A stretch of DNA of 64,000 bases from an uncultured SAR86 cluster bacterium (GTDB taxonomy: Bacteria; Pseudomonadota; Gammaproteobacteria; Magnimaribacterales; D2472): contig CAXYEK010000004.1 of the NCBI GenBank assembly GCA_964276235.1, positions 5,228-69,227 on the forward strand, in the 5' to 3' direction. Made by a program: the position numbers and the translations under genes. Shown here in pieces: positions 3,017-23,223 of this stretch (its first letter is position 1; each line of letters opens with the position of its first letter). The notes beneath the pieces are model-generated. The model saw only the letters and a list, made by a program, of their open reading frames with translations, searched no databases and was not told the DNA's origin.

Positions 3017-3044
3017 ACTTCGCATAATATATATTATGTTTAAT
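3017..3044. other. dif: Candidate dif site (XerC/XerD chromosome dimer resolution site)
   Basis: ACTTCGCATAA-TATATA-TTATGTTTAAT compared with E. coli dif GGTGCGCATAA-TGTATA-TTATGTTAAAT gives 23/28 identical. The CGCATAA core of the XerC arm is intact, the XerD arm matches 10/11 and the central region 5/6. It lies mostly in the intergenic gap and overlaps the phoD stop codon by 1 nt. Confidence 0.45.
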
Positions 3045-7036: not shown

Positions 7037-7053
7037 AAAGTAGATAATTAGTA

Positions 7054-7509
7054 TTAAATAGCCTTATGCCCTACCGTGAATCCAGCAGCTTGAATTCCGG
7101 CAATTCCTGCTATTTCGTCCTGGTCTGATCTGTCACCTGTAACACCAATTGAGCCAATATTTTTACCATTCTTTTGAATAATTAATCCACCTGGAGTAGG
7201 CACAAGGTTTCCATCAGCCATTGTCTGCATTCCTGCTATAGCTTTATCAAGCCTTGGCTGGTCTTCAAATATATCTCTTAGTTTGTTAGTTGAGACGCAG
7301 AAAGCTAAACATGTCCAAGCTTTAGCATATGCAATCTTTGCTCTTATAGGTCCTGAGCCGTCTTCAGATAAAGTTGCTCTTATAACGCCAGCAACATCAA
7401 TAACAGTTACAGTTAATGGCATAAAACCCTCGGCACGAGCTTTATTTAAAGTTTCTTGACATATCTTTAATGAATCTTCTAAATTAATTTCACCTGGATT
7501 TTTGATCAT
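7054..7509 (-). CDS. GlcG/HbpS-like (DUF336) haem-binding family protein
   Basis: 151 aa. GGLIIQKNGKNIGSIGVTGDRSDQDEIAGIAG matches the conserved GlcG-family core. Confidence 0.8.
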   Translation of the reverse strand: MIKNPGEINLEDSLKICQETLNKARAEGFMPLTVTVIDVAGVIRATLSEDGSGPIRAKIAYAKAWTCLAFCVSTNKLRDIFEDQPRLDKAIAGMQTMADGNLVPTPGGLIIQKNGKNIGSIGVTGDRSDQDEIAGIAGIQAAGFTVGHKAI

Positions 7510-7714
7510 AAATGGACCTTCATTAGTTCGTTACTATAATTTCTGATATCTATAATAACAAAATCTAACCTAAATGATGTTTACTTAATCAATAATTATT
7601 CCAAGACCTTGTTGCAGATCAATCATAAAATCCTCTGAAGATCTTTTTAATTCGCAATAGTAATCTATAGAGACTTCAGGAAATAGAATGTAATTTAATA
7701 AATGCTTATCATTT

Positions 7715-8986
7715 TTAGTATAAATCATCTAATTCATAATCAATACATTTTTGTTTAAAATTCTTTTTATGTTCTGTAACAGTTAATAAATCTTTATCCT
7801 TCTTCGATGGATAATTTGTCTTTACGAGTTCTTTTAATTCTTTATTAATTTTTCCTTTAACTTTGCCGTATTTACCATTAATTAAATCAACCATTTCATT
7901 TGTTAATGATTCATATCTTTTTGAATTCCTGATATTTAATAAAGCTTGAGTACCAACAATCTGAGATGATGGAGTAACTAATGGAATGTAACCGAGGTCT
8001 TTTCTGATTTTTGGTATCTCATTTATAAGATCGGAAAGTTTTTCTTCCATACCAAGGTCTCTTAGCTGACTTTCAAAATTACTAAGCATTCCACCTGGAA
8101 CCTGATTGGTAAGCATTTTAGTATCAATACCTTTTAAGCTCCCTTCATGATCTGCATATTTAACTCTAATATTTGCAAAATATTCTGATATTTCATTAAG
8201 AAGCTTCATGTCATAGGGATTTTTACTATCTTTATAAATCATGGAGATAAAACTTTCTGTTGCAGTATGACCATATGTCCCACTAAAAGATGATATTGAG
8301 GTATCAATATTATCAACACCTGCTTCAAAAGCTTTTAGATTTGTAGCATCCGACAAGCCAGTTGTCGCATGGGTGTGGAGATAGATTGGTATTTTTAAAT
8401 TCTTTTTCAATAAAGTTATAAGATCAAATGCCTCATAAGGTCTTAACAAACCAGACATATCCTTAATTGCAACTGATGAGGCACCTATATCTTCAATATT
8501 TTTAGCAAGCTTTAACCAATATTTATTGTTATGAATTGGGCTAGTGGTATAGGCAATAGTGCCTTGTGAATGTTTATTATTAGCATTAATAAATCTTATT
8601 GATGATTCAATATTTGTTATATCATTTAACGAATCAAAAGTTCTAAAAATATCTATACCAGATTTTGCTGCATTTTTAATAAAAAGAGAAACTACAGAAT
8701 CATCAAATTTTTTATAGCCTACAATATTTTGTCCTCTCAAAAGCATTTGAAGTTTTGTTTTTTTAAAAGATCTTTTAAAGAGTTTAAGACGATCCCAAGG
8801 ATTCTCATTGAGATATCTTAGACAACAATCATAAGTTGCTCCTCCCCATACCTCTACAGAAGAAAATCCAACTTTATCCATTTTTGGGATAATAGGGAGC
8901 ATGTCACCAACCTTCATTCTAGTTGCCAAAATAGACTGTTGCCCGTCTCTTAAAACAACTTCTGTAATCTTGGTATTAATTTTCAT
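7715..8986 (-). CDS. Oxaloacetate decarboxylase alpha / transcarboxylase 5S-type carboxyltransferase, no biotinyl domain
   Basis: VVLRDGQQSILATRM, AIKDMSGLLRP, LHTHATTGL and VPGGMLSNFESQL are the HMGL-like plus PYC_OADA carboxyltransferase motifs. The ORF is 423 aa with no A-M-K-M biotinylation motif. Confidence 0.8.
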   Translation of the reverse strand: MKINTKITEVVLRDGQQSILATRMKVGDMLPIIPKMDKVGFSSVEVWGGATYDCCLRYLNENPWDRLKLFKRSFKKTKLQMLLRGQNIVGYKKFDDSVVSLFIKNAAKSGIDIFRTFDSLNDITNIESSIRFINANNKHSQGTIAYTTSPIHNNKYWLKLAKNIEDIGASSVAIKDMSGLLRPYEAFDLITLLKKNLKIPIYLHTHATTGLSDATNLKAFEAGVDNIDTSISSFSGTYGHTATESFISMIYKDSKNPYDMKLLNEISEYFANIRVKYADHEGSLKGIDTKMLTNQVPGGMLSNFESQLRDLGMEEKLSDLINEIPKIRKDLGYIPLVTPSSQIVGTQALLNIRNSKRYESLTNEMVDLINGKYGKVKGKINKELKELVKTNYPSKKDKDLLTVTEHKKNFKQKCIDYELDDLY

Positions 8987-8990
8987 TTTT

Positions 8991-10238
8991 TTAGTTATTT
9001 AATGTATTTATAAAACTATAGACTGCAGATGCGCAAGCTTCTGGATTTTCGATTACGTTAAAATGAGCAGCATTAGGTATTATGTTAAAAGCACTAAACC
9101 TTGCAGAATCTTTGAGTTGAATGCTTTTATATAGACCATGATTAGTTATATATTGATCTTGGATCGGTACTGACTCTTGATATTCAGAATCTGGATAAAT
9201 ATCTTCAATTTCATTTCTAAATAAATTATATTTTCCAAAATATGGTTGATCTGAAACAATCATTCCATTTGGTGCTCGTTTAAATTCATCTTCACCCTGA
9301 AACTGCATAATAGGTGTCTTTGTATCTTTAAATTTCTTTCTATTTTCAACTTCGTGCTTCATACCGCCTTGAACTAATGACTGTTGAAATTTCTTATAGT
9401 AACTTTTATAGGCAACTTGAGATGATAATTTTAAATGTGTATATCTATCAAATAGGTGAGTGCCCTTTTTAGCTTTTCTCCCTTTATTTACAAAATCTGG
9501 AGAAAGAAGCTGTATAGGTTTGTTTAAGATGATAACAGAAAATAAAAGAATTCTTAGTTGGTGGTATGAAGACATGACACTATGTGGAGGGCCTACAAGA
9601 ACCTTTGGTGCTAATTTTTTCCATTCAGGATCAGCATAATTCCAAACTTGAGAACCTCTTGAATAAGATAATGCTTTCTCTGGGTTGCTCATGCAAAGAT
9701 TTTCAAGAATTACAGCACCTCTATCGTGCCCAATTAAGTGAGCTGATTCTATGCTCATAGCATCCATCAATAATTTTATAATTTTAGATTGATTTAGATG
9801 ACTATATTTTTGATCCACTTTCATCTTAGAGAAGTCTATAATTTTTTTACTAGTTAAACTCTCACCATCAGATATCGCGAAGACATTTGCGAGTTCAATA
9901 TTAAAATGATCTTCGTAATATGGCATGTTAAATATTATTATTCTAAGTGAATCATCAATTTTATTTAAACAATCAGCCATCCAGGACATTGACTTTATAG
10001 GCTCTGTAGGTATCCCCCCTATTAATATAAGAGTTTTTTCTGAAACAGCATCCTCACTACCAATTTCCCATACAGAGTGTCTTTCACTATTTACAGTAAT
10101 ATAATATTTCTTAAAATTTGAAAACTCTATCAAAGGTTTATTAAGAAATTTTTCTCTAAAAAATATTCTCAAATTAAAATAAATATCTATAAATATAAAA
10201 ATAAAATGCGTTGATACCTTGAGTACAAGATCAAGCAT
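8991..10238 (-). CDS. Alpha/beta hydrolase with Asp nucleophile (epoxide hydrolase / haloacetate dehalogenase-like)
   Basis: Nucleophile elbow LIGHDRGA (Asp rather than Ser) and C-terminal His context NAAHFNVIENPE. 415 aa with a large cap insertion. Its ATG directly abuts the mmsA stop (10238/10239). Confidence 0.7.
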   Translation of the reverse strand: MLDLVLKVSTHFIFIFIDIYFNLRIFFREKFLNKPLIEFSNFKKYYITVNSERHSVWEIGSEDAVSEKTLILIGGIPTEPIKSMSWMADCLNKIDDSLRIIIFNMPYYEDHFNIELANVFAISDGESLTSKKIIDFSKMKVDQKYSHLNQSKIIKLLMDAMSIESAHLIGHDRGAVILENLCMSNPEKALSYSRGSQVWNYADPEWKKLAPKVLVGPPHSVMSSYHQLRILLFSVIILNKPIQLLSPDFVNKGRKAKKGTHLFDRYTHLKLSSQVAYKSYYKKFQQSLVQGGMKHEVENRKKFKDTKTPIMQFQGEDEFKRAPNGMIVSDQPYFGKYNLFRNEIEDIYPDSEYQESVPIQDQYITNHGLYKSIQLKDSARFSAFNIIPNAAHFNVIENPEACASAVYSFINTLNN

Positions 10239-11726
10239 TTAGTTATCGTTTTTTGGGAAACCTAAGTCTACTTTACTCTCAGCTGGATCAGGCCATCTTG
10301 TAGCAATTGATTTAGTTTTTGTATAAAACTCTATAGATGAGTTTCCGAACGCCTTAGTTTCTGAAAAACCACTATCTTTCCACCCACCAAAGCTATGCGA
10401 GTAAGTAGGAAGAGGAATTGGAAGATTAATACCAACTGACCCAGCTTGAACTTCATTAGCCCATTTTTGCGATACTCCACCATCACGAGTAAATAAAGCA
10501 GCTCCGTTTCCAAGCTTATGTCCATCAGTTATTTCCATTGCTTCTTCATAAGATTTAGCTCTAACAAAACATAAAACAGGTCCAAATATCTCGTTTTCAT
10601 ATACAGACATTCCAGGTTTAACGTGGTCAATCAAAGTAGCCCCAACAAAAGAACCCTCTTCTTCATCAGACAGCTTTCTTCCATCAACAACTAAAGATGC
10701 TCCATCAGGTTCAGCTGATTCAATGAATGAATATATGCGTTCTTTATTTTCCTTAGAAATAACAGGGCCTAATTGTGTATTTGGATCATCTGTTTTACCC
10801 ATTATAAGACTTGGCATTCTTTCTTTAATTTTATTTACTAACTCATCAGCAATGTCTCCAACAGCAACAACAACTGATACAGCCATACATCTTTGTCCAG
10901 CAGCTCCAAAACTTGCTGAGACAGCAGCATCTGCAGCCATATTAAGATCAGCATCTGGAAGAACAATCATATGATTCTTTCCTCCACCAAGAGCCTGAAC
11001 TTTAGTATTATTTTGAACTCCCAATATTTTTAAACTCTTAGCTACTGGTGTACTTCCTATAAATGCTAAACCAGCTACTTTTTCATGAGAGACTAATTGC
11101 TCAACAACATCCTTTCCTCCATTTAAAACACTATAACAACCATCTGGAAAACCAGATTCTTTAAATATGTCGGCATAAAGTCTTGATATCGATGGCACCT
11201 TTTCACTAGGTTTAGCAATAAAGGTGTTTCCAGTGACTATAGCCATAGAGGCATGAAGAATAGGTATTAATATTGGGAAATTAAATGGTCCACAGCCAGC
11301 AACAACTCCTATTGGATATCTAACATCCGTTATATCTATTCCACCTGCAACATTAGGACTCATAATAGACGGGTAGAAATGCTGAACGCCTGCAGTATGT
11401 GTAAGAGCCTGGATAGCTCTATCTAACTCAGCCTCTGCATCTGGTCTTGTTTTGCCTGCTTCGTTTACACAAATATCTATTATCTCTTCTGATCTATTGA
11501 TAACACCTTGTCTAAATTTCAATATCAATTCAGCTCTGTAACTTAAACCAGTTTTTGACCAAGTTTTAAAAGTTTTTGCTGCTGATTCAATTGCCTTATC
11601 AGCACTAACTTTAGTTGCATAAATGACTTCACCGATTTGAGTTCCATATGAAGGATTTATAATATTTATAGATTCGTTAGATTCTAAGCATTCTTTACCA
11701 TCTATATAGTTTGTTACTTTGTACAT
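10239..11726 (-). CDS. mmsA: CoA-acylating methylmalonate/malonate-semialdehyde dehydrogenase
   Basis: 495-aa ALDH fold with catalytic Cys context GQRCMAVS and the typical MMSDH length and motifs (FNFPILIP, GGKNHMIV). Confidence 0.85.
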   Translation of the reverse strand: MYKVTNYIDGKECLESNESINIINPSYGTQIGEVIYATKVSADKAIESAAKTFKTWSKTGLSYRAELILKFRQGVINRSEEIIDICVNEAGKTRPDAEAELDRAIQALTHTAGVQHFYPSIMSPNVAGGIDITDVRYPIGVVAGCGPFNFPILIPILHASMAIVTGNTFIAKPSEKVPSISRLYADIFKESGFPDGCYSVLNGGKDVVEQLVSHEKVAGLAFIGSTPVAKSLKILGVQNNTKVQALGGGKNHMIVLPDADLNMAADAAVSASFGAAGQRCMAVSVVVAVGDIADELVNKIKERMPSLIMGKTDDPNTQLGPVISKENKERIYSFIESAEPDGASLVVDGRKLSDEEEGSFVGATLIDHVKPGMSVYENEIFGPVLCFVRAKSYEEAMEITDGHKLGNGAALFTRDGGVSQKWANEVQAGSVGINLPIPLPTYSHSFGGWKDSGFSETKAFGNSSIEFYTKTKSIATRWPDPAESKVDLGFPKNDN

Positions 11727-11784
11727 ATTAATATCCTACCCTATTGAATTTATTTAAACTAAAATTAATTATATCCAATCTATA

Positions 11785-11800
11785 CTAGTCAGTTGACTAG
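11785..11800. promoter_or_regulatory. Candidate operator, palindrome CTAGTCA-GT-TGACTAG
   Basis: 7+7 inverted repeat in the 104-nt divergent gap, 31 nt upstream of the monooxygenase ATG and 59 nt from the mmsA ATG. The same arms recur at 18186-18201. Confidence 0.6.
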
Positions 11801-11830
11801 GAAAAAGCAACAAAGCGAGTACAATAAGTA

Positions 11831-13405
11831 ATGAATTATGATATAGCAATAATTGGTTATGGACCTGTAGGCGCAACTGCAGCAAATATGTTTGCTGCAA
11901 AGGGTTTTAGTGTAATCGTAGTTGAACCAAAAAAAGAGATTTGGGATATACCGAGGGCTGTTCATTTCGATGGACAAACACAAAGAATATTTCAATCTAT
12001 GGGTATCTTTGATCAAATCAAAAAAATAATTGACCCCATAACAGGTGTAAACTTTCTAAATAGAAAAGGTAAAAAACTTTTAGGCATTTCCTTTGAAAGT
12101 CATCCAAAAGTTAATGGATATTATGAAGGTGTTATGTTTAATCAACCTAAGTTTGAAAAAATTATTAGAGATAATGCTCTTAATTTTAATAATATAGATT
12201 TTAAAATAGGTGCATATGTCAGCAAACTAGAGTCTTTAAATAATACTAATAATTTTGAAATTATCGATTGTGAAACAAATGAGGCTTCTACTTTTACTTC
12301 TACCTATTTAATTGGCTCGGATGGAGCTGATAGTTTTATTAGAAAAAGTCTTAATGTTAATTTATATGATTATAAGTGCGATCAAGATTGGATTGTTGTC
12401 GATTATCTGGTCGATAAAAAATATAAAATACTTGATAAATCAAGGTATCAGATTTGTGATTACAAAAGACCAACAACCCTTTTGCCAATAACAGATAATC
12501 ATGTCCGATGGGAGTTCAAAATTAATCCAAAAGATGATGTAGATAAATTAGAAACAGAAGAAAGCATTCGCAGTTTTATGAGCCCTCATATGTGGAGATT
12601 AAATCCTGATATAGACCTAAATTCTGGTGAGCTTATAAGATCAAGTAAATATACCTTTCATGGCTTATTGGCTGATAACTTTAAAGTTAATAATTGTTTT
12701 TTAATAGGCGATGCTGCTCATCAAACTCCTCCCTTTCTTGGTCAAGGGCTATGCCAAGGTATAAAAGATGCTTATAACTTGTCTTGGAAATTAGCTGGTG
12801 TAAAAGAAGGTATTTACAATAAAAAAATTCTAAATTCTTTTGATACTGAAAGAAGAGAAGTTAATGAATTTATGATTAAAACTGCTATTAAACAAGGTGA
12901 CGTGATTGGAAGTCAAAATATATTAAAGGCATTTATTAGAGATATGTTTTTTGTTTTTGCTAAAAATTTTCCCAAAGCACTTACAGCCCTAAAATTTCAA
13001 TATAGCTGGAGATTTACAAACGGCATTCTTGATAATGATTTATATCCGAACAACGTAAATGGTGTGATATTTCCACAACCTGACATATCTATCGAATTTG
13101 AAAATAAAAAATTTGATCAGTACATTAAAGATTCATTTTCATTAATTATATTTAACAATGATAAAACTTTACTCGATGATCTTAATAAAATCGAAACTAT
13201 AAGCTTATATGATAATAATATTCACTTTTTTGATAACTCTCATCCCTTCATGAGTGACGGTAAGTTAATTGAATGGTCTAGTGCTAATGGCGTCTCAGCT
13301 GTTATTATCAGGCCTGATAAACATGTTTATGGTTGTTGTGATAACAATGATATTTTAGCAAAAATAACAAATTTAACGAATAAGCTTCATCAGGAATTAA
13401 TATGA
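11831..13405 (+). CDS. FAD-dependent aromatic ring hydroxylase (MhpA/PcpB-class flavoprotein monooxygenase)
   Basis: N-terminal dinucleotide fold DIAIIGYGPVGATAANMFAAKG, PRAVHFDGQTQRIF, and FAD/substrate motif GDAAHQTPPFLGQGLCQGIKDAYNLSWKL. 524 aa. Confidence 0.85.
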   Translation: MNYDIAIIGYGPVGATAANMFAAKGFSVIVVEPKKEIWDIPRAVHFDGQTQRIFQSMGIFDQIKKIIDPITGVNFLNRKGKKLLGISFESHPKVNGYYEGVMFNQPKFEKIIRDNALNFNNIDFKIGAYVSKLESLNNTNNFEIIDCETNEASTFTSTYLIGSDGADSFIRKSLNVNLYDYKCDQDWIVVDYLVDKKYKILDKSRYQICDYKRPTTLLPITDNHVRWEFKINPKDDVDKLETEESIRSFMSPHMWRLNPDIDLNSGELIRSSKYTFHGLLADNFKVNNCFLIGDAAHQTPPFLGQGLCQGIKDAYNLSWKLAGVKEGIYNKKILNSFDTERREVNEFMIKTAIKQGDVIGSQNILKAFIRDMFFVFAKNFPKALTALKFQYSWRFTNGILDNDLYPNNVNGVIFPQPDISIEFENKKFDQYIKDSFSLIIFNNDKTLLDDLNKIETISLYDNNIHFFDNSHPFMSDGKLIEWSSANGVSAVIIRPDKHVYGCCDNNDILAKITNLTNKLHQELI

Positions 13406-14001
13406 AAAAAACAACATCAAAAAATAAAGGTAGGAAAAGTGTAGAAAAAAGACTTATAGATTCTACTGAAGAGCTTGTAGCATCAATTAGTCCTAACCAA
13501 CTTACAATTCGAGATATTGCAGATCATGCTGGAGTTAATCATGGACAAATACATCACTATTTTGGTAACAAAGAAGGTCTATTAAAGGCAACGTATAGGC
13601 AGATGGCATTTGAGCATGGTGAGCAATTAGATAGAAGAGATATATCTGCAAATAATTTACCAGACATGGCACTTTCTGATATAACTAATGACTACTTTAG
13701 CGCTATCATCCGAGCAGTTTTGGATAATAAGATGGATGTCGTTGTTCAAGAAAATGATAATCTTCATGTCTCTAGAAAAATGGTTAATGAGATAACAGCT
13801 CTTAAAGGGTTAAAGAAGCCTAGTCCAGAAATTAAAGCAGCGATTGCTCTTACAATGTGCATAGAATTTGGCTTAACAGCAATGAAACCTTATATAGAAA
13901 AAGTATTAGATTTAAATGATGTGGAAATGGAAAAATTTATTCAGACCATTGTTGATGTTAGAACCACTGAATTTAAAAAGCTACTTGAAGATGTTAAATA
14001 A
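13402..14001 (+). CDS. TetR-family transcriptional regulator
   Basis: N-terminal HTH TIRDIADHAGVNHGQIHHYFGNKEGLL. 199 aa. ATGA overlap with the upstream monooxygenase. Confidence 0.85.
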   Translation: MKKTTSKNKGRKSVEKRLIDSTEELVASISPNQLTIRDIADHAGVNHGQIHHYFGNKEGLLKATYRQMAFEHGEQLDRRDISANNLPDMALSDITNDYFSAIIRAVLDNKMDVVVQENDNLHVSRKMVNEITALKGLKKPSPEIKAAIALTMCIEFGLTAMKPYIEKVLDLNDVEMEKFIQTIVDVRTTEFKKLLEDVK

Positions 14002-15547
14002 AAAAACAATTCTAATACCACTAATTTTGGCATCTTTTATAGAAGCTAGACCAAATGTCATTATTATTCTAACTGATGACCTTGGCTGGGGTGATGTTAG
14101 CTATCACGGTGGCTCTATACCTACTCCAAACATGGATAAACTCGCATCAAAGGGAATTGAGCTAAATAGATTCTATGCAAATCCAACATGTAGCCCTACT
14201 CGCGCTTCCTTATTGACTGGATTAAATGTTTTCAATCATGGTGTCATTAGACCTTTTATGAATCCAACTGCTGAGCAGATTGGGCTAAATGAAAATCTAA
14301 AAATAATGCCTGAATATTTTCAAGAAGCTGGATATCAAACAGCAATGTCAGGGAAATGGCATTTAGGAATGCATAAAAAGGAATTTAGACCAATCAATAG
14401 AGGCTTTGAAACCACATATGGTCATATGCTTGGTGGTCTTGGTTACTTTGACCATGTTTCCGCTGGAAGAGTTGACTGGCATAGAGATGGAATAGCTCTT
14501 GAAGAAGATGGTTATTCAACAGAATTAATAGCCAATGAGGCAGTTCGTATTATTGAAAATAAAGACCCAGAGCGCCCTCTTTTTTTATATGTTGCATTTA
14601 ATGCACCTCACACACCAATTCAAGCACCCATCAAGAACATTGAAAATTTTTTACATATTGAGAATTTATTAGATAGAACTTATGCAGCAAATGTTAATAA
14701 ATTAGATTTAGAAATTGGAAAAATAATTGACTCCATAGATAGTGCTGGATTATTAGAAGAAACAATAATAGTTTTTTTTAGTGATAACGGACCTGTTTTT
14801 GATATTCCTGCTATTGGTCAAGTTATTGCTCCAGGATTAATGGAAGCCAGAGGAAGTCCAGGTAAATTAACTGGAAGTAAAATGTATGCTTCAGAAGGTG
14901 GAATCCGAGTTCCTGCTAGTATTTGGTGGAAAGGCGTAATAGAAAATTCAAAGACTGATCAATTTTTCTTTGTCCAAGACCTATTGCCAACACTTCTATC
15001 TGCAACTGGAATTGGCATAGATAAGAATATAGAATTTGATGGCAATAATAAATGGGACAATCTACTAAATGGAAATCTTGAATTACCTGTAAATGATCTG
15101 GTTGCTAATAGAGTAATAAATGATGAAAGAGCATTATTTAATAACGAATGGAAGCTTTACTATAGCAATCCTGTAATGATAAGTGGAGGAGCTAAATACA
15201 GTCTATTCAATGTTATGAATGATCCGTATGAACAAAATGATCTATCCTCTTCTAATGCTGAAATCTTCGAGCAAATGAAAATAACCATGATGAGCATGGA
15301 AGAAAATAACGTTCAACCAGATATTAACCCAGTTAAACAATATCTCCATGGAGATACCGAGGGTGGTAAAATTGTTGGAAGCCCCTGGCTTGAAGGTGAC
15401 TATAAAACAGAAGGCACCCCATCAGGATTTGTAAGCTTTTTTGTTATGTCGTGGATAATATTTTTAGCCTTCAAATTACAGATAATTGGATTTATATTTA
15501 TACTTATACTCAGCAGAATTTTATACAAAAAATTTATAAAATCTTAA
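13991..15547 (+). CDS. Formylglycine-dependent sulfatase (arylsulfatase family), exported, with C-terminal membrane tail
   Basis: The CSPTRASLLTG (C-x-P-x-R) motif follows LTDDLGWGDV, and FSDNGP is also present. The ATG at 13991 gives signal peptide MLNKKTILIPLILASFIEA; the track start at 13916 runs inside tetR. The last ~40 aa are hydrophobic. Confidence 0.88.
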   Translation: MLNKKTILIPLILASFIEARPNVIIILTDDLGWGDVSYHGGSIPTPNMDKLASKGIELNRFYANPTCSPTRASLLTGLNVFNHGVIRPFMNPTAEQIGLNENLKIMPEYFQEAGYQTAMSGKWHLGMHKKEFRPINRGFETTYGHMLGGLGYFDHVSAGRVDWHRDGIALEEDGYSTELIANEAVRIIENKDPERPLFLYVAFNAPHTPIQAPIKNIENFLHIENLLDRTYAANVNKLDLEIGKIIDSIDSAGLLEETIIVFFSDNGPVFDIPAIGQVIAPGLMEARGSPGKLTGSKMYASEGGIRVPASIWWKGVIENSKTDQFFFVQDLLPTLLSATGIGIDKNIEFDGNNKWDNLLNGNLELPVNDLVANRVINDERALFNNEWKLYYSNPVMISGGAKYSLFNVMNDPYEQNDLSSSNAEIFEQMKITMMSMEENNVQPDINPVKQYLHGDTEGGKIVGSPWLEGDYKTEGTPSGFVSFFVMSWIIFLAFKLQIIGFIFILILSRILYKKFIKS

Positions 15548-16206
15548 ATAATCTCACAAACTTCATCAAAATTTAGTCTAGGTAATCTCATAAATATTTT
15601 TGATGGATCTCCGTAACCTATACAACATAAAAAATTGGATTTTATATTGGTATCTTTGAAAAATATTTGATCAACCAGATCATTATTAAAACCAGACATA
15701 GGCCCACAATCTAAACCTAGAGCTCTTGATACCATCATAAAGTAGGCTCCCTGAAGACTACTATTCCTAAATGCTGTTGCTTGATTAAATTCAGCATTCC
15801 CTTTGTACATAGGTGCAATATCCATATGAGGGAATAATTTACTCATATTATCTGAGAAATCAAGATCATAGCCTATGACTGCTACTACCGGAGCACTCAT
15901 TACCTTGTCAATGTTATTAGGCAACAATGCTTCTTTTAATAACTGCTTTTGCTCTTCACTCTTTATAAATTTAAATCTAGCAGGACAGCAATTTGTACTT
16001 GTTGGGCCCATCTTAGTGAGTTCATAGATTGATTTAATAATATCATCACTAACATCTTTATCTTGCCAACCATTCATACTTCTTGCTTCACCAAACAATA
16101 AATCTATCTGATCTTTGTTTAAGTTATCTGCATTTTCTTTTAAATTGCTAAATCTAGTTTGAGCAGCAGCAACTGCTTTTTTTTGATCATCTGTGAGCTC
16201 TATCAT
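15544..16206 (-). CDS. Nitroreductase-family oxidoreductase, HadB/RutE subfamily-like
   Basis: GPTSTNCCPARF, AFRNSSLQGAYFMMVSRALGLDCGPMSGF and C-terminal RLPRLNFDEV closely parallel E. coli RutE as I recall it. 220 aa. Confidence 0.75.
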   Translation of the reverse strand: MIELTDDQKKAVAAAQTRFSNLKENADNLNKDQIDLLFGEARSMNGWQDKDVSDDIIKSIYELTKMGPTSTNCCPARFKFIKSEEQKQLLKEALLPNNIDKVMSAPVVAVIGYDLDFSDNMSKLFPHMDIAPMYKGNAEFNQATAFRNSSLQGAYFMMVSRALGLDCGPMSGFNNDLVDQIFFKDTNIKSNFLCCIGYGDPSKIFMRLPRLNFDEVCEII

Positions 16207-17306
16207 GATTGACCCTCAGCTTCTGCTTTAGCAGCTTTTTCCATTTCTTTAATCATTCCTGGAATCGTTGGATTTGATGCACGCGCATTATCAATCTGAT
16301 CAACTGGCATAGTTATTCCAAATGTATTTGGAACCTCCGGTCCGTATTGAGCCATTGCCAAGTCTCTAAAGCCTGAATTTTCAGTTGGAACAGATGCATC
16401 TATTAAATCACCGTCAGTCCAATGTTCATGCGTAAATCCATGAGGATCTCTCCAATAGTCATACATTTGGCTGCCTAATAAATGTCTGCCAATACCCCAT
16501 TCATGATAATACTCATCAACAGTTTTCATATGATAATGACCAGCCATCAAGTCATCTACTGAATCTTGAACTTCATATCCAGCATGTCCAAATGCTACAG
16601 CACTAGCTTCACCAGGAAGACCCATATTGTTCATAGTATGATGGTCAACTGGCTTATCTCCTTGATCGCATCTCATGAAAGCACCCATTGAAACTCCATC
16701 AGGTCCAATACAATTATTACTTATTAGAAAACCTAATGTATTTGAATACCAATCAACTGAAGCTTGAGGATCTTTACAATTAATAGCAGTATGACCTAGT
16801 CGCTTAACTTTTGAAGTTAATTCATATACCCACTTATCACCATGAACTTGCCATTCATCTGCAGCTTTTCCAAAACGTTGTAATTCATTCTCTCTTTGTT
16901 TTGACCCACCTGTATTTAAAACTTTTGAAACAACAGCAACAGGTTCAGCTTCAATCATACCGTGACATACCTCAACTTCTACACCGTCTGGATCAATAAC
17001 AGTTACCTTATGACCTCCAGCAAGTTCAGTATTTTCAACAATATCAACATTGAATTCTTTAGACAAGGCTTCTAAATCACTATAATCATTAGCTTTATAA
17101 GCAGATCCTATATATTTATTTTCTTCGCCTTTTGTTGCGACATAAATATAAGGTGATGCTCCAGTGCCTCTAAAAAAGATACTATTTTCATCCTCATGCG
17201 CAAGCATCATCCCGAAATGATTGAGGTATTTTTTTTGAGCTTCAAATTCTGTAAGTTCAAACCTTACATAAATAATATCAGCTACTTTGCATATTGGATT
17301 ATTCAT
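16203..17306 (-). CDS. Two-domain VOC-fold type I extradiol ring-cleavage dioxygenase
   Basis: Metal-ligand contexts LGHTAI, FGHAGYEV and GIGRHLLGSQMYDYWRDPHGFTHEHW fit the GRH..Y..DP.G...E extradiol signature. 367 aa. Confidence 0.75.
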   Translation of the reverse strand: MNNPICKVADIIYVRFELTEFEAQKKYLNHFGMMLAHEDENSIFFRGTGASPYIYVATKGEENKYIGSAYKANDYSDLEALSKEFNVDIVENTELAGGHKVTVIDPDGVEVEVCHGMIEAEPVAVVSKVLNTGGSKQRENELQRFGKAADEWQVHGDKWVYELTSKVKRLGHTAINCKDPQASVDWYSNTLGFLISNNCIGPDGVSMGAFMRCDQGDKPVDHHTMNNMGLPGEASAVAFGHAGYEVQDSVDDLMAGHYHMKTVDEYYHEWGIGRHLLGSQMYDYWRDPHGFTHEHWTDGDLIDASVPTENSGFRDLAMAQYGPEVPNTFGITMPVDQIDNARASNPTIPGMIKEMEKAAKAEAEGQS

Positions 17307-18171
17307 TATTATCTCCTATTAATAATTTATTAATTTCTGACCAAACAAGGTGATCATAAGTATTAGGTCCATCCCCATAAAGTGATTGAATTTCTGGTGC
17401 CCATTCACCAGTAACGTAATCAAGTATACCTTCCTTATAACTATCCCTAGTTGAAATAGTTTCCCAGTAGGATTTAAGATTAGGCAATTTACTACTTTCT
17501 AAAACACTATTAAAACGCATTTCATAAACCCTATGAAGAATAGATGTCATACAACAATCAATAGCTGTATATTCATCTCCCATCATGAATTGTTTATTGT
17601 GATTTAAGACTCCTTCTATATATACAAGGTGTTTTGCAAGCATTATAGACATTTTTTTACACAAACTTACAGGAGGTTTTCCTAAAATTCGTAGCATTAT
17701 AAATATTGGAACTCTCTTCCTTATAGAATGTTTTGTTACATAATCCCATACAACACTAGTTAGTGGTCTTTTGCATAACATTTTAACTAAAAGCTGCGCA
17801 GATATGCCGCCCGCTGTAGTACCTAGAGTTTCACCAAGCTCTTTAGTTTCATCTAAAGTCACAAAATCTAACAAGCTTTCAAACATTTCATTATTTGGAT
17901 GATCAGGAAATAATAGCTGCCCTTGTTGAGGATATTTTTTATCAATATATCTCATTATTTGGATGCTATCAGGTATTGGACTTCCATGATCAACTAATGT
18001 CGGAACAAGATTCTTAGGATTTAGTTTTTTGTATTCTTTACTTAAATGGTCTCCTTTGGATTCAAGATAAAGAAGATTATATTTATATGAAATATTTTTT
18101 TCAGACAAGGCAACCCTTGCCATATTTGAAGCAACCGATTCACCGTAACCATATAATTCAAGATTATTCAT
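17299..18171 (-). CDS. Glutathione S-transferase family protein, long (290 aa)
   Basis: Thioredoxin-like N-domain LELYGYGESVASNMARVAL...KLNPKNLVPTLV plus a helical C-domain. 8-nt overlap with the downstream dioxygenase. Confidence 0.75.
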   Translation of the reverse strand: MNNLELYGYGESVASNMARVALSEKNISYKYNLLYLESKGDHLSKEYKKLNPKNLVPTLVDHGSPIPDSIQIMRYIDKKYPQQGQLLFPDHPNNEMFESLLDFVTLDETKELGETLGTTAGGISAQLLVKMLCKRPLTSVVWDYVTKHSIRKRVPIFIMLRILGKPPVSLCKKMSIMLAKHLVYIEGVLNHNKQFMMGDEYTAIDCCMTSILHRVYEMRFNSVLESSKLPNLKSYWETISTRDSYKEGILDYVTGEWAPEIQSLYGDGPNTYDHLVWSEINKLLIGDNNE

Positions 18172-18184
18172 ACTCTTGCTTTAT

Positions 18185-18202
18185 TCTAGTCATATGACTA
18201 GA
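18185..18202. promoter_or_regulatory. Candidate operator, perfect palindrome tCTAGTCA-TA-TGACTAGa
   Basis: 18-bp perfect inverted repeat in the 65-nt divergent gap, 15 nt from the GST ATG and 36 nt from the FAH ATG. The arms are identical to the site at 11785-11800. Confidence 0.65.
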
Positions 18203-18236
18203 CTATGACAAGTTTAATTTTGAAAAAGGAATAGTT

Positions 18237-19148
18237 ATGGGTTTTGTTTTAGGTAATATAAAGGGTAGATCTTCTTTAATAAAGGATAATCATTTTTATG
18301 ATATTGAGACTATTTCTAATGGATCTGTAAGTTCAGACCCATCACAAATTCTTCTTTCACTTGATCAACTAAGTGACTTATATAACACAATTGATAGTTT
18401 TGAGCCTACAGGTTTAGTTAACGATGATGATCTAAAGGCACCTATCACAAATTCAGGAAATTGTTTTGCTGTTGGACTTAACTATAAAAAACATGCTGAA
18501 GAATCAAATATGGCCCTTCCTGAATTCCCTATGATTTTTGCTAAATATACTTCATGTATAGTTGGGCCCTTTCATGAAGTAGAGTTAAGAAGTGATATGG
18601 TTGATTATGAAGCTGAATTAGTTGCTGTAATTGGCAAACCTGGAAAGGATATTGCATTAGAGAATGCTTGGGATCATGTTGCAGGTTTAACTGCAGGTCA
18701 AGATATTTCAGATAGAGCAGTTCAATTTCATTCAACACCACCTCATTTCAATCTTGGTAAATCTTTTGATACTTTTGGACCTATAGGGCCAATTCTTGTT
18801 TCCCCAGATAAATTCAAAGATAAGAGTTCATTGAAATTAGAATGTTATGTTAATGATGAATTACGTCAAGATGAAAATACAAATGACCTAATATTTGATA
18901 TTCCTTACATCATTTCATATCTATCAGAATTTTTAACACTTAAAACTGGAGATTTAATTTTTACAGGAACTCCTGCAGGCGTTGGAGCTACTCAAGGTAA
19001 ATTATTAAAAGATGGGGATGTTATAAGAACGACCATTGAGGGAATTGGTACTATTGAAAATAAATGTAGAAGAATATCAGATCATTCTAATACCTCTCAT
19101 ATACCTGAGTTTCTAAAATCAAGACTACCTCAGGATTCTGAAGACTAA
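18237..19148 (+). CDS. Fumarylacetoacetate hydrolase (FAH) family protein
   Basis: AVGLNYKKHAEE, VDYEAELVAVIGK and LKTGDLIFTGTPAGVG are the FAH-fold motifs. 303 aa. Confidence 0.85.
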   Translation: MGFVLGNIKGRSSLIKDNHFYDIETISNGSVSSDPSQILLSLDQLSDLYNTIDSFEPTGLVNDDDLKAPITNSGNCFAVGLNYKKHAEESNMALPEFPMIFAKYTSCIVGPFHEVELRSDMVDYEAELVAVIGKPGKDIALENAWDHVAGLTAGQDISDRAVQFHSTPPHFNLGKSFDTFGPIGPILVSPDKFKDKSSLKLECYVNDELRQDENTNDLIFDIPYIISYLSEFLTLKTGDLIFTGTPAGVGATQGKLLKDGDVIRTTIEGIGTIENKCRRISDHSNTSHIPEFLKSRLPQDSED

Positions 19149-19203
19149 ATTTATAAATAATCTAATTGAAGATAAATATATTTATTAGTGTAAAATAGTT
19201 TTT

Positions 19204-19422
19204 ATGTCAAAAGAAGATAATCTAGAATTCGAGGGTGAAGTTATTGAAACCCTTCCCAATACAAAATTTAAAGTTAAATTAGAAAATGATCATGTAATTA
19301 CTGCTCATATATCTGGAAAAATGCGTAAGCATTACATTAGAATATTGACTGGTGATAAAGTTAAAGTAGAAATGACACCTTACGACCTATCAGTTGGGAG
19401 AATAACCTTCAGAGGTAGATAG
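19204..19422 (+). CDS. infA: Translation initiation factor IF-1
   Basis: 72 aa, near-canonical IF-1 sequence (..[37 protein letters not shown]). Confidence 0.97.
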
Positions 19423-19426
19423 ACCT

Positions 19427-20983
19427 ATGGATGTTGAACTAAAAGGATCGCTTGCAGAAACTTTTAGATGGCGATGCAAGAACTCTGCAAACTCCACAGC
19501 AATTAAATTTCTTGATAGAGAGCAAACTTATGCTCAATTCGATACTAATTCAAATAAAGTAGCGCAGGGATTACTAAATTTTGGTATAAAAAAAGATTCG
19601 CGCATTGCATATTTAGCAAAGAATACTGATTACTTTTTTGAAATTTTAAATGGTGGCCTTAAATCAGGTTCTGTAACTGTTGGAGTTAACTGGAGACTCA
19701 CAGCTGAAGAAGTTGCATACGTATTAGAAGATTCTAAAAGTGAGCTTGTCTTTGTTAGCTCAGATTTTTTTGAAATCATAGACAGTATTAAAGATAAGGT
19801 TTCTTCATTAAAAAATATTATTGCTATAGATGGTGTTTACTCAAATTGGTTTAATTATGTTGAGTGGAGAGATTCTCAAAAAGATCTCGATCCATATATT
19901 GAATCTAATGAAAATGATGATGTAGTTCAGCTCTATACTTCTGGAACAACTGGAAATCCTAAAGGTGTTCAACTAACTAATAGAAATTTTTCGAGTGCAA
20001 CCGAGTCTACACTTCAAGTTGTCCCAATTACATATGAGAGTCCTTGTATGGTGTGTATGCCTGTTTATCATGTTGCAGGCACTAATTTTGGAATATGGGG
20101 ACTTCTTCAAGGCTGTAAAAATATAATAATCCCTGAGGTTGATCCAGGATTAATTCTTAATCTAGTAGAAAAGGAAAGAATTGAACTTACAATGTGGGTT
20201 CCTGCTGTAATTCTTTTTTTAATTCAACATCCTAATGCATCTAAGACAGATTTCAGTTCTTTAAAGTTGGTTCTCTATGGAGCCTCTCCTATTGCTGAAG
20301 ATACTCTTTTAAGTGCAATAGACCTAATGAATTGTGATTTCTATCAAGTCTATGGACTTACAGAAACAACTGGAGCAATTACACTTCTATCACCTGAAGA
20401 TCATTCGATAGAGAGAGGAAAATTAAGGTCTTGTGGCAAACCTATACCAGGTGTTGAAATAAAAATAGTTGACGAGAATAAAAATGAAGTACCTACAGGT
20501 GAAGTTGGTGAAATAATTACAAAATCTGATCTAAATATGAAGGGTTATTGGAACAATGATAAAGCAACCTCTGAAGCATTTAATAATTCATGGTTTTACT
20601 CAGGTGACTTGGGCTACTTAGATAAGGATGGATTTTTATTTATACACGATAGACTTAAAGACATGATAGTGTCAGGTGGGGAAAACATATACCCTGCCGA
20701 AGTTGAAAATGCACTTATGAGCAACTCCTTGATTTTGGATGCAGCAGTGGTAGGTATTCCAGATGAGAAATGGGGAGAGTCAACAAAAGCATTTGTTGTC
20801 TTAAAAAAAGAAGGTGAAATTAATGAGGAAGAGATAATAAATTATACTAAAACTAAAATTGCCTCATACAAATGTCCAAAATCTATCAATTTTATAAGTG
20901 AATTACCAAGAAATCCTTCTGGAAAGGTTCTTAGAAGAGAGTTAAGAGCTCCGTTTTGGGAAGGAAAAGATCGAGAAGTTTAA
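19427..20983 (+). CDS. AMP-dependent acyl-CoA synthetase/ligase
   Basis: AMP-binding motif LYTSGTTGNPKGV, plus GDLGYLDKDGFLFIHDRLKDMI and PRNPSGKVLRREL. 518 aa. Confidence 0.88.
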   Translation: MDVELKGSLAETFRWRCKNSANSTAIKFLDREQTYAQFDTNSNKVAQGLLNFGIKKDSRIAYLAKNTDYFFEILNGGLKSGSVTVGVNWRLTAEEVAYVLEDSKSELVFVSSDFFEIIDSIKDKVSSLKNIIAIDGVYSNWFNYVEWRDSQKDLDPYIESNENDDVVQLYTSGTTGNPKGVQLTNRNFSSATESTLQVVPITYESPCMVCMPVYHVAGTNFGIWGLLQGCKNIIIPEVDPGLILNLVEKERIELTMWVPAVILFLIQHPNASKTDFSSLKLVLYGASPIAEDTLLSAIDLMNCDFYQVYGLTETTGAITLLSPEDHSIERGKLRSCGKPIPGVEIKIVDENKNEVPTGEVGEIITKSDLNMKGYWNNDKATSEAFNNSWFYSGDLGYLDKDGFLFIHDRLKDMIVSGGENIYPAEVENALMSNSLILDAAVVGIPDEKWGESTKAFVVLKKEGEINEEEIINYTKTKIASYKCPKSINFISELPRNPSGKVLRRELRAPFWEGKDREV

Positions 20984-23223
20984 ACTTTTACCTTCTTTTT
21001 AATCTCGCTAAACTTTAAATTACCAGCCTTTATGTCTAACTTGATTTGACCACCAGCTTTTAGGTTTCCAAAAAGTAGTTTATCAACCAAAGGTTTTTTA
21101 ATATTTTTTGAAATGAATCTTTCCATAGGTCTTGCTCCCATATCCTTATCGTAACCATTATCTGCAATCCAGCTTATAACATCTTTAGAAACAACGATTT
21201 CAACATTTCTTTTATCTAGCTGCGCTTGAAGTTTAGTTAAGAATTTATCTACGATTGAGAGAATGATAGTTTTATCAAGATAATTAAATTGAATAGTTTC
21301 GTCTAGTCTATTTCTAAACTCTGGTGAGAATAGTTTGTTTAATGATCCCATTGCATCTGATTCGTTAGATGATTTATTAAAACCAATATTACGTTTACCA
21401 AGAAGTTCTGCTCCAATATTAGTAGTCATTATTAGAATTACATTTCTAAAATCAGCCTTTCTGCCATTATTATCTGTCAACACTCCGGCATCCATGACTT
21501 GTAAAAGGATATTAAAAATATCGGGATGTGCTTTTTCTATTTCATCAAGAAGTAAAACACAATGAGGGGACTTCACAATTGCCTCAGTTAAAAGCCCGCC
21601 CTGATCAAAACCAACATAGCCCGGAGGCGCACCAATTAATCTTGAAACAGTATGACGCTCCATATACTCACTCATGTCAAACCTTAATAGATCAACTCCC
21701 ATAATATCTGCAAGCTGAGTTGATATTTCAGTCTTACCTACACCAGTTGGACCAGTAAATAGAAATGAGCCAATAGTTTTATTATCATCTCTTAAGCCAA
21801 CTCTTGATAGCTTAATAGCGCTCGAAAGAGTCTCTACAGCTGCATCTTGACCAAAAATAACTCTCTTTAAGTCATCTTCAATATTTTTAAGATTTTTCTT
21901 ATCAGCAACGGTGATACTTTGTTCTGGAATTTTTGTAATCTTTGAAATTGTTTTTTCTATATCTGACTGATTTACAGTTATTTTTTTATCATTTTTCCTT
22001 GCAATATTTAGCATAGCGCCAGTTTCATCAATTACATCTATAGCCTTATCAGGAAGAAATCTATCATTGATATATTTAGAGGATAGTTCTATTGAGGTTT
22101 TTATAGATTCATTAGAATAATTAACATTATGATATTCCTCATATATGCCTTTAAGCCCATCTAATATCTCAACACATTCATCATAATTAGGTTCTAGTAC
22201 ATCAATTTTTTGGAATCTTCTTGAAAGTGCTTGGTTCTGATCAAAAATACCTCTGTATTCTTGAAAGGTTGTTGAGCCAATACATCTAATTTGTCCCTTA
22301 GCTAATGCAGGTTTTAAAAGATTAGAGACATCAAGAGAACCACCAGAAGCAGATCCTGCTCCAATTATTGTATGTATTTCATCTATAAATAATATTGGCT
22401 TATCTTTAGTATCAAGAAAATTTAAAACTTCTTTCAATCTTTTTTCAAAATCTCCTCTATATTTGGTGCCAGCTACTAATGCTGCAATATCCAGGGAGTA
22501 TATTGTTGATTTTGATATTATTTGAGGTACTTTTTTATTACAGATCAAATAAGCTAAACCTTCTGCAATTGCCGTTTTACCAACTCCAGACTCTCCAACA
22601 AGCAAAGGATTGTTTTTAGTTCTTCTTGAAAGAATTTGGACAAGTCTTTCAACCTCTTTAGTTCTTCCTATTAAATTATCAATTTTATCTTCTTCTACAA
22701 GATTATTAAGATTGATTAAAAAACTATTCTCTTGCTTGTCATGTTCCGAAGGCTCATTGGAAGAATCTATATTTTCTTTAGGATCAGAAATTTCTTTTTC
22801 AGGACTTCCGTGAGAAATATATGTGACTACATCCAGTCTATTAATATTATTCTTATTTAATAAATATACTGAATGCGATTCCTTTTCTGAAAATATTGCA
22901 ACAAGAATATTTATTGGCTTAACAACGCCCTTTCCAGATGACTGAATATGAAAAACTGCTCTTTGTAAAACTCTTTGAAAACCAAGAGTGGGCTGAACTG
23001 CTTTCTGAGCATCTGTTCTAACTATACTTGCTTGTTTGAGATGATCATTCAAGCTATCTTTCATTGACTCTAAATTGATATCTTTAGACTCTATAAAGTC
23101 TTTAACGTCATAATCATTTAGAATCATTAAAAAAAGATGCTCAACAGTCAAATATTGAATATTGATCTCATGAGCTTTATCAAAAAGGCTCGCTATAGAT
23201 ATTTCTAATTCTTTACTAAACAT
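20980..23223 (-). CDS. clpA: ATP-dependent Clp protease ATP-binding subunit ClpA
   Basis: 747 aa with two AAA+ modules (GESGVGKT, GPTGVGKT) and a Clp N-domain. clpS lies immediately upstream. Confidence 0.95.
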   Translation of the reverse strand: MFSKELEISIASLFDKAHEINIQYLTVEHLFLMILNDYDVKDFIESKDINLESMKDSLNDHLKQASIVRTDAQKAVQPTLGFQRVLQRAVFHIQSSGKGVVKPINILVAIFSEKESHSVYLLNKNNINRLDVVTYISHGSPEKEISDPKENIDSSNEPSEHDKQENSFLINLNNLVEEDKIDNLIGRTKEVERLVQILSRRTKNNPLLVGESGVGKTAIAEGLAYLICNKKVPQIISKSTIYSLDIAALVAGTKYRGDFEKRLKEVLNFLDTKDKPILFIDEIHTIIGAGSASGGSLDVSNLLKPALAKGQIRCIGSTTFQEYRGIFDQNQALSRRFQKIDVLEPNYDECVEILDGLKGIYEEYHNVNYSNESIKTSIELSSKYINDRFLPDKAIDVIDETGAMLNIARKNDKKITVNQSDIEKTISKITKIPEQSITVADKKNLKNIEDDLKRVIFGQDAAVETLSSAIKLSRVGLRDDNKTIGSFLFTGPTGVGKTEISTQLADIMGVDLLRFDMSEYMERHTVSRLIGAPPGYVGFDQGGLLTEAIVKSPHCVLLLDEIEKAHPDIFNILLQVMDAGVLTDNNGRKADFRNVILIMTTNIGAELLGKRNIGFNKSSNESDAMGSLNKLFSPEFRNRLDETIQFNYLDKTIILSIVDKFLTKLQAQLDKRNVEIVVSKDVISWIADNGYDKDMGARPMERFISKNIKKPLVDKLLFGNLKAGGQIKLDIKAGNLKFSEIKKKVKV

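Follow-up and report, generated by a model that had tools for sequence, protein, structure and literature searches.

In classical TetR/QacR-type systems, such as the tetR–tetA divergent gap, a small helix-turn-helix repressor is encoded beside its targets, acts on a palindromic operator lying over divergent promoters, regulates its own synthesis and is freed by a small molecule. In the resorcinol system of Corynebacterium glutamicum the TetR-type gene rolR has as neighbours the genes of a flavin-dependent aromatic hydroxylase and of a dioxygenase that cleaves the ring; the divergent gap includes the operator, and the phenolic substrate is the inducer. The present analysis concerns a locus of this general kind in a stretch of 64,000 nucleotides from an uncultured SAR86 cluster bacterium (GenBank assembly GCA_964276235.1, contig CAXYEK010000004.1, positions 5,228 to 69,227 of the forward strand), referred to below as the window. 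The window includes a catabolic gene cluster with a tetR gene (13402–14001) and two copies of a palindrome, CTAGTCA-NN-TGACTAG, called here O1 and O2. Judged from sequence comparison, O1 and O2 are, with a probability of roughly 0.78, the operators of the TetR-family repressor encoded at 13402–14001.

Unlike the classical TetR/QacR-type systems, the locus has catabolic enzymes instead of an efflux pump as its proposed targets. A single type of operator is shared by two gaps that are 6.4 kb apart, and in the relatives as many as six units would be under it. From the RolR system it differs in its enzyme set, and no RolR-named entry was present among the PDB matches at E ≤ 1e-3.

The box recognized by RutR of Escherichia coli is 5'-TTGACCAnnTGGTCAA-3' (PMC2475637). 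RutR and the regulator of the window belong to the TetR family, and in both cases the site is a 16-bp palindrome with 7-nt arms and a 2-nt spacer. RutR governs, and the window regulator would govern, a catabolic cluster that includes a RutE-type gene, with sites in the divergent gap by the regulator's target operon. The arm CTAGTCA of the window matches the RutR arm in four of seven positions and the arm CTAACCA, present in many SAR86 sites, in five of seven; many SAR86 sites (CTAACCAnnTGGTTAG) deviate at arm positions one and three only and have the core ACCAnnTGGT in common with the RutR box. Position 4, one of the two most important positions of the box, is A in RutR boxes (PMC2475637) and A, G or T here.

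Orthology with RutR was considered and rejected. BLASTP gave 31% identity over 67 residues (3–68), covering the helix-turn-helix only, with nothing beyond approximately residue 80; hhalign aligned 61 columns with a probability of 85%, and the NCBIfam matches included no RutR model. The recognition helix is GVSKTNLLYYF in RutR and GVNHGQIHHYF here, and the regulon here is of the aromatic-ring-cleavage type. Models for RutA, RutB, RutC, RutD, RutF and RutG were all absent from the NCBIfam matches of the ten cluster proteins, which included only the RutE-family gene. These comparisons suggest that the window TetR works like RutR and is not a RutR.

Single enzymes of the cluster resemble those of several aromatic pathways. 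The MhpA-like hydroxylase, which scores above its subfamily cutoff, the type I extradiol-like dioxygenase with BphC and HPCD as relatives, the alpha/beta hydrolase, the HpcE-like FAH protein and the glutathione S-transferase (GST) with its MaiA/NagL-like N-terminal domain together recall the meta-cleavage routes mhp (3-hydroxyphenylpropionate) and hpa/hpc (homoprotocatechuate) and the lower pathways of gentisate and homogentisate degradation. However, no equivalog cutoff was reached for MaiA, HpaD, HpaG or MhpC, these pathways' genes for hydratase, aldolase and isomerase are missing here, and the module has MmsA, RutE, a periplasmic sulfatase and, in most relatives, a TonB receptor in addition.

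Two palindromic sites in divergent promoter gaps

The predicted operator O1 (CTAGTCAGTTGACTAG; 11785–11800, no strand assigned) is located in the divergent gap between mmsA and the monooxygenase gene, 31 nt from the monooxygenase ATG (11831) and 59 nt from the mmsA ATG (11726). The predicted operator O2 (tCTAGTCATATGACTAGa; 18185–18202, likewise without strand) is located in the divergent gap between the GST and FAH genes, 15 nt from the GST ATG (18171) and 36 nt from the FAH ATG (18237). Its core at 18186–18201 reads CTAGTCATATGACTAG, and the perfect palindrome grows to 18 bp, TCTAGTCATATGACTAGA, at 18185–18202. The form common to both sites, 16 bp in length, is present in one copy per divergent promoter gap.

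An initial annotation of the window had reported this pair of sites, the extension of the second, and all four distances to the start codons, and each of these agreed with the sequence. It had further noted the arm pair in no other intergenic gap that it read and had called the recurrence very unlikely by chance, and both points agreed with the scan: when up to two mismatches were allowed, the 64 kb included O1 and O2 alone against an expectation of 0.16, and none of 100 dinucleotide shuffles produced two or more matches. A third match was found only at three mismatches (20596), which is at chance level.

Conservation of the motif in related loci

The comparison set included 80 loci of approximately 20 kb each, found with the TetR profile, and the proteins of the window were mapped onto them. 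Seventeen loci (L001–L016 and L018) carried the SAR86-type cluster; L006 among them is taken from the complete SAR86 chromosome OX044367.1. In these 17 loci the gene order is kept: hydrolase and mmsA are divergent from monooxygenase and tetR (followed by the sulfatase or a second GST), then come rutE, dioxygenase and GST, and then FAH. The sites of the relatives follow a degenerate motif, TA-N-Y-CA-NN-TG-R-N-TA, with the arms TAGTCA, TAACCA or TATCCA. The initial annotation had taken the 14-nt identity as the motif; the identity is exact in the window, whereas the functional consensus looks looser.

The degenerate motif was present before the monooxygenase gene in all SAR86-type loci spanning that gap (17/17), and in every SAR86-type locus spanning the other gap it was present before FAH or before a TonB receptor gene preceding FAH, with further sites upstream of GST. 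The O2 site is identical in L016 (8919–8934), and 16 further loci have related sites ahead of GST, the TonB receptor or FAH. Also the sulfatase genes relocated in L003, L005 and L014 have a motif site of their own, 31 nt upstream.

In the window and the loci L001–L019 (406 kb altogether) the degenerate motif had 57 matches, 56 of which were intergenic, the intergenic share of this sequence being 12.6% according to our own open reading frame (ORF) call. All 56 intergenic matches were situated within the cluster gaps, mostly 25–42 nt upstream of a start codon, and the window included no copy outside the cluster with either the strict or the degenerate pattern. The density of the motif per 100 kb was 17.5 in the SAR86 cluster loci, 12.7 in the distant cluster loci described below, and 0.5 in 52 unrelated TetR loci. 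In the alignment of 13 orthologous mmsA/monooxygenase gaps, mean column identity was 54%, and the invariant columns, start codon aside, were the operator bases T, A, C, A, T, G, A, C, T and A.

The distant clusters were found in SAR92 (L026, L027), in Porticoccaceae and Cellvibrionales (L028, L030, L032, L052, L067), and in a Pseudomonadales metagenome-assembled genome (L022). The two SAR92 loci come from the cultured strains H231 and H921 (PMC10746254) and include four motif sites each. Their GC content is 42–57%, and their TetR proteins are 31–42% identical to that of the window. The motif takes the form YTAGCCANNTGGCTAR (YTAGCCA-NN-TGGCTAR) or CTAGTCA-NN-TG.CTAG, and its positions are the same as in SAR86, that is, in the monooxygenase/mmsA gap, before the TonB receptor and before FAH. 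The mmsA gene adjoins the monooxygenase gene in SAR86, SAR92 and Porticoccaceae, and in the SAR86 loci the hydrolase gene follows mmsA. The co-occurrence of motif, tetR and gene set in related genomes, suggested as a check in the initial annotation, was thus seen in the 17 SAR86-type loci, SAR92, Porticoccaceae and Pseudomonadales. Two loci labelled as alphaproteobacterial Planktomarina metagenome-assembled genomes (L029, L031) equal the Cellvibrionales UBA2618 contig L030 in gene order, motif sites and GC content (46%), and are probably mis-binned gammaproteobacterial contigs.

The TetR regulator

The tetR gene (13402–14001, plus strand) encodes a 199-aa regulator of the TetR/AcrR family, in which the TetR-type helix-turn-helix (PF00440) was recognized at residues 18–63 with 45.5 bits against a cutoff of 24. 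The ORF scans confirmed the earlier statement that it is the only regulator between O1 and O2, and among the scanned ORFs of the window (at least 100 aa) it was also the only recognizable transcription factor. The start of tetR overlaps the stop of the monooxygenase gene by 4 nt, and tetR is therefore probably autoregulated from O1. The recognition helix GVNH[GA]QIHHYFG is invariant across the SAR86 and the distant orthologues, down to 31% overall identity. The main argument for TetR as the binder is that this helix and the operator core are both conserved in a cluster that has been rearranged repeatedly.

The best NCBIfam match of the protein was BetI, which was rejected as an identification (50.9 bits against an equivalog cutoff of 118, and 49.4 against 201.3). 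Homologues with 52–62% identity are plentiful in marine metagenomes, and among species-representative genomes they were found in SAR86 single-cell and metagenome-assembled genomes. The TetR lineage of the window itself is rare in the collections, with one 97% match on a contig of 820 nt.

In a second SAR86 lineage, a TetR with 48% identity is encoded directly after a clpA-like gene (L017, 6755–7309; L019, 10001–10534). The genes next to it in L017 encode another GST, an FAH-like protein and a sulfatase, with no monooxygenase, dioxygenase, mmsA or strict motif match, and the L019 contig stops at the tetR gene. These may represent a paralogous or remodelled regulon.

Overlap of the sites with predicted promoters

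Promoter-like sites were sought with a consensus scan of positions 7000–21500. The best site of the region was the predicted GST promoter TTGTCA-17-TAGAAT (18183–18211, minus strand; 10/12 consensus matches), in which O2 occupies the spacer and overlaps the -10 hexamer; the GST transcript would begin approximately 5 nt before the ATG. O2 is situated also within the spacer of a possible FAH promoter on the plus strand, TTGCTT-17-TAGACT (18176–18204), again overlapping the -10 hexamer. This promoter was read from the sequence and is weak (7/12); a transcript of FAH starting from it would have a leader of approximately 26 nt, in which the AAGGA ribosome-binding site is included.

At O1, two candidate mmsA promoters on the minus strand, TCAACT-17-TATAAT (11796–11768) and TTGCTT-17-TAGTAT (11810–11782), within 11768–11810, both overlap the operator. 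In the gap alignment of the SAR86 relatives the predicted monooxygenase promoter has the consensus TTGACT-16-TAAAAT, and the operator fills its spacer and the start of its -10 hexamer.

Three SAR86-type loci (L008, L010, L011) have a long mmsA/monooxygenase gap of approximately 660 nt. These gaps include two operator-plus-promoter blocks (tatcCTAACCAnTTGACTAAAATAAATCAAc) about 580 nt apart (L008, 3859 and 4437; L010, 7788 and 8368; L011, 7769 and 8347) and an ORF of 159 aa on the opposite strand with a weak match to a membrane domain. In these loci the regulon may have gained a further, small transcription unit.

Weighing of the operator assignment

Several points weigh against the assignment of O1 and O2 to the repressor at 13402–14001 and against the pathway attached to it. 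The organism is uncultured, and the proposed pairing of TetR and operator comes from sequence comparison. The scans covered the 64 kb of the window and roughly 20 kb per relative, and sites elsewhere in the genome are possible. No strict-pattern site was found before GST in L005, L008, L010 and L013. The TTGACT and TAAAAT hexamers of the relatives are missing from the window's own monooxygenase promoter, so the plus-strand promoter overlap at O1 is uncertain; the one candidate in the window, TAGGAA-16-TACAAT, would yield a leaderless transcript. A close characterized homologue of the TetR protein was not found, the best PDB match having E=2.6e-5. Its AlphaFold2 model, built from an alignment of 15 sequences, is weak (nine helices, mean predicted local distance difference test score 55.9, C-terminal domain below 50) and too poor for a fold search or pocket analysis. 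Finally, the pathway proposed below is a guess, and two of its enzymes, the dioxygenase and the hydrolase, belong to uncharacterized subfamilies.

The alternative that survives best, though an unlikely one, is that the palindrome is a genuine operator of a regulator encoded elsewhere, the local TetR controlling something else or only its own operon. The limited extent of the DNA that was scanned leaves room for such a regulator. Yet no regulator other than TetR stays with motif and cluster where genes have been rearranged or where different taxonomic orders are compared, its recognition helix is conserved as well as the operator core, and the 7-2-7 geometry is the same as in the box of the TetR-family RutR.

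It is still less probable that the conserved block consists of back-to-back core promoter hexamers (-35 TTGACT-like, -10 TAG- or TAAAAT-like), with the dyad as a by-product. The right arm with the preceding T does read TTGACT in many sites, TAAAAT comes next in the SAR86 relatives, and the outer TAG of both O2 arms begins a -10-like hexamer. However, many arms (TGGTTA, TGGATA, TGGCTA) are unlike a -35 hexamer and gaps between GST and the TonB receptor include two to three tandem sites, which argues that the dyad is not such a by-product. The left arm is moreover conserved as a mirror image, the motif is kept over a GC range of 30 to 57% and in this cluster only, and the promoter scan showed no excess over shuffles (63 sites found, 71 expected).

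Recurrence by chance, or a dispersed repeat or mobile-element end, is very improbable. In a look-elsewhere control the window included 24 perfect 7-2-7 palindromes, among which CTAGTCA was the sole recurring arm, and some recurring 7-2-7 arm appeared in 9 of 300 shuffles (3%). The exact 16-mer is also present in many unrelated metagenome contigs, as expected of 14 specified bases in a huge collection: the matches listed from JGI metagenome contigs (at least 120) were mostly unrelated contigs with a median GC of 0.55, and the only one of the window lineage among them was L167 (about 1 kb; mmsA 100% and monooxygenase 98–100% identical). That scan is uninformative as to dispersal. Against this possibility stand the excess of observed over expected matches in the window, the position kept in 17 loci, and the lack of window copies outside the cluster. 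Neither a transposase nor a repeat structure was seen when the cluster and the genes around it were annotated with Pfam. An intergenic repeat resembling repetitive extragenic palindromes or miniature inverted-repeat transposable elements was likewise rejected, the window having two copies in 64 kb, both in the cluster, and the unrelated loci the low density given above, in agreement with the initial annotation, which had named such a repeat as what would speak against its proposal.

That the palindrome works as an RNA or DNA structure (hairpin, attenuator or terminator) is hardly credible: it is an inverted repeat that may be transcribed in some leaders, but the spacer is just 2 nt, a T-run is lacking, the scan called no terminator-like site for O1 or O2, and the arms are fully complementary in only 20 of the 56 sites, the other 36 having one or two non-complementary positions (two in 23 sites), so that the arms vary without compensatory pairing, which fits recognition of half-sites by a protein and not a hairpin.

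Gene content of the cluster

Genes were called from an ORF map and family scans (Pfam, and NCBIfam for the ten cluster proteins), which agreed with the gene content given in the initial annotation. Leftward from O1, the first gene is mmsA (10239–11726, minus strand), encoding a CoA-acylating (methyl)malonate-semialdehyde dehydrogenase (TIGR01722, 498.4 bits against a cutoff of 448.5). It is followed without a gap by the gene of a 415-aa alpha/beta-fold hydrolase without a named family (8991–10238, minus strand; PF00561, 28.7 bits), for which no NCBIfam match was found, and as the third gene by that of an OadA-like carboxyltransferase domain protein without biotin carrier (7715–8986, minus strand; PF00682 and PF02436).

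Rightward from O1, the monooxygenase gene is first (11831–13405, plus strand), followed by tetR and the sulfatase gene. The monooxygenase is an MhpA-like FAD-dependent aromatic hydroxylase (PF01494; NF004829, 407.8 bits against a cutoff of 390), with phenol and hydroxybiphenyl monooxygenases as its PDB relatives. The Cys-type sulfatase (13991–15547, plus strand; PF00884, 188.7 bits) has its start set at the ATG at 13991, so that its first 11 nt are shared with the end of tetR. A reading of the sequence from this start shows an N-terminal signal peptide, the active-site motif CSPTR and a C-terminal hydrophobic anchor, and the enzyme should therefore be periplasmic. The convergent stop codons of the sulfatase and the rutE-like gene overlap by 4 nt (15544–15547), which leaves no intergenic terminator between the opposing transcription units.

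Leftward from O2, the order is GST, dioxygenase, and lastly the rutE-like gene. The GST (17299–18171, minus strand; GST_N and GST_C domains) is 290 aa long, against approximately 215 aa in zeta-class isomerases, and in PDB it is related to GSTs of the zeta and phi classes and to maleylpyruvate isomerase. Its identification as a maleylacetoacetate or maleylpyruvate isomerase was rejected, TIGR01262 giving 75.9 bits against 171.05 and covering the N-terminal 90 residues only. The rutE-like gene (15544–16206, minus strand) encodes a nitroreductase-fold protein of the malonic semialdehyde reductase family (NF003768, 273.5 bits against a cutoff of 152). MmsA and RutE both act on malonic semialdehyde.

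The dioxygenase (16203–17306, minus strand) is a two-domain type I extradiol-like enzyme of the VOC superfamily, belonging to an uncharacterized subfamily. It was assigned with a PDB profile search, the matches being 3b59, BphC and homoprotocatechuate 2,3-dioxygenase. In the alignment with BphC 1han, the motifs GH (His146) and HH..EV (His210) align to the invariant H172 and H241, the first two metal ligands, and the invariant E294 pairs with a Glu of 3b59 beyond the BphC alignment; no equivalog cutoff was reached. Among 5.8 billion proteins, every homologue retrieved was an unnamed 'VOC family' or 'catechol 2,3-dioxygenase-like' protein. Chlorophenol and hydroquinone routes of the PcpA/LinE type were rejected, the profile search having given catechol-type extradiol enzymes and no hydroquinone dioxygenase, and so was 4-hydroxyphenylpyruvate dioxygenase, as no 4HPPD model matched.

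Rightward from O2, FAH forms a single-gene unit (18237–19148, plus strand). Its product is an FAH-family protein resembling HpcE and acylpyruvate hydrolases (PF01557, 218.4 bits), with the putative HpcE 6v77 as the best PDB match (E=9e-55), and the gene is preceded by the ribosome-binding site AAGGA. For the dioxygenase, the 415-aa hydrolase and the GST, as for TetR, no close characterized relative was found in PDB.

According to these family assignments the gene combination appears to match no characterized route, in line with the earlier remark that it fits no textbook pathway. A published description of the cluster or of the motif was not found in the literature on SAR86, SAR92, Maricurvus, or TetR with hydroquinone or maleylpyruvate. 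The best guess for the substrate is a phenolic compound, often sulfated.

Variation of the cluster among the relatives

Most SAR86 relatives (L001–L015 and L018) have a gene for a TonB-dependent receptor of 794–830 aa between GST and FAH (for example L003, 14181–16565; L004, 14872–17364), in either orientation and with one to three motif sites upstream. The receptor is missing from the window and from L016, and tblastn found no copy anywhere in the window, where the GST/FAH gap is 65 nt long. For the carboxyltransferase, no counterpart with at least 50% coverage was found in the 80 loci, and it is therefore regarded as a passenger specific to the window. The initial annotation had proposed a single TetR-type regulon of four units that act in one pathway; strong evidence from comparative genomics supports this, except that the carboxyltransferase is not a conserved member while the TonB receptor usually is one.

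The segment including rutE, dioxygenase, GST and FAH is 91% identical at the DNA level between the window (15531–19158) and L016 (6265–9890). The flanks are less similar, the region from mmsA to the sulfatase (with monooxygenase and tetR) being 72% and the downstream segment 79% identical. Among the proteins, the dioxygenases are 98%, the monooxygenases 59% and the TetR proteins 55% identical. This could stem from a recent exchange of the rutE–FAH segment, or else from a much higher rate of diversification in the peripheral genes, for the hydroxylase, the regulator and the sulfatase, than in the core. A swap of the monooxygenase–tetR module between the window and L016 was rejected, as the identity profile better fits an unusually conserved rutE–FAH segment.

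Proposed mechanism

From these comparisons we infer binding, repression, autoregulation, an inducer and an order of the pathway steps. A TetR dimer would grip each 16-bp palindrome through the invariant TA..CA-NN-TG..TA. Each operator would sit on core elements of two back-to-back promoters, and two bound dimers would therefore silence four transcription units: mmsA–hydrolase(–carboxyltransferase), monooxygenase–tetR–sulfatase, GST–dioxygenase–rutE, and FAH. One dimer on O2 would occlude the GST and FAH promoters together, and the repressor would be autoregulated through the monooxygenase–tetR–sulfatase unit. The repressor would come off the DNA once its C-terminal domain had bound a small-molecule inducer, for which the phenolic substrate or an early pathway intermediate is the likeliest candidate.

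In the proposed pathway, an aryl sulfate would first lose its sulfate through the periplasmic sulfatase, and the resulting phenol would be hydroxylated by the MhpA-like flavoprotein. The ring would then be opened by the extradiol-type dioxygenase, the cleavage product would be handled by the GST, the FAH protein and the alpha/beta hydrolase, and a C3 aldehyde fragment would be disposed of by MmsA and RutE.

Other features of the window

The GC content of the window is 30–35%, and the cluster lies in core chromosomal surroundings, including nqr, clpA/S, icd, purB, mfd, his and fab (Pfam, ORFs of at least 100 aa). Positions 1–3043 fully contain no ORF of at least 100 aa; a long gene may extend past the left end, or the region may be non-coding. 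In the his operon (48929–51373), histidinol dehydrogenase and imidazoleglycerol-phosphate dehydratase are in one ORF of 624 aa, followed by a hisH-like glutamine amidotransferase ORF of just 150 aa and a gap of 120 nt, which may reflect a gene fusion together with a truncated or frameshifted hisH. A GAPDH-family ORF (37405–38910, 501 aa) has an N-terminus approximately 150 residues longer than usual, Gp_dh_N beginning at residue 149.

Implications

SAR86 is among the most abundant uncultured bacterial groups of the surface ocean, and its genomes are small. A dedicated, conserved repressor–operator pair would mean that this gene set is switched as one unit, and would be the strongest culture-free evidence for one pathway and for a substrate that is met only episodically. 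The regulated genes are proposed to form one catabolic module kept across marine Gammaproteobacteria, which in most relatives includes the TonB-dependent outer-membrane receptor. More tentatively, and at somewhat less than even odds, this would be an undescribed TetR-gated module of SAR86, SAR92, Porticoccaceae and relatives, by which a scarce, probably sulfated algal phenolic is taken up via the TonB receptor and degraded along a route unlike any characterized one, with ring cleavage by an unstudied VOC subfamily and with malonic semialdehyde as the fragment that MmsA and RutE dispose of.

If this is true, a new TetR subfamily would be marked by the GVNHxQIHHYFG helix together with the box TA..CA-NN-TG..TA, and its regulon could be followed by sequence through the metagenomes and metatranscriptomes of the ocean. 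With these two signatures the regulon could also be delimited in practice in any marine genome, including its TonB receptor and sulfatase, which would define the substrate of uptake, and the repressor could be used as a biosensor for the inducer. As an operator, the palindrome would belong to an ordinary TetR-type system, and the chief interest lies in the chemistry under its control.

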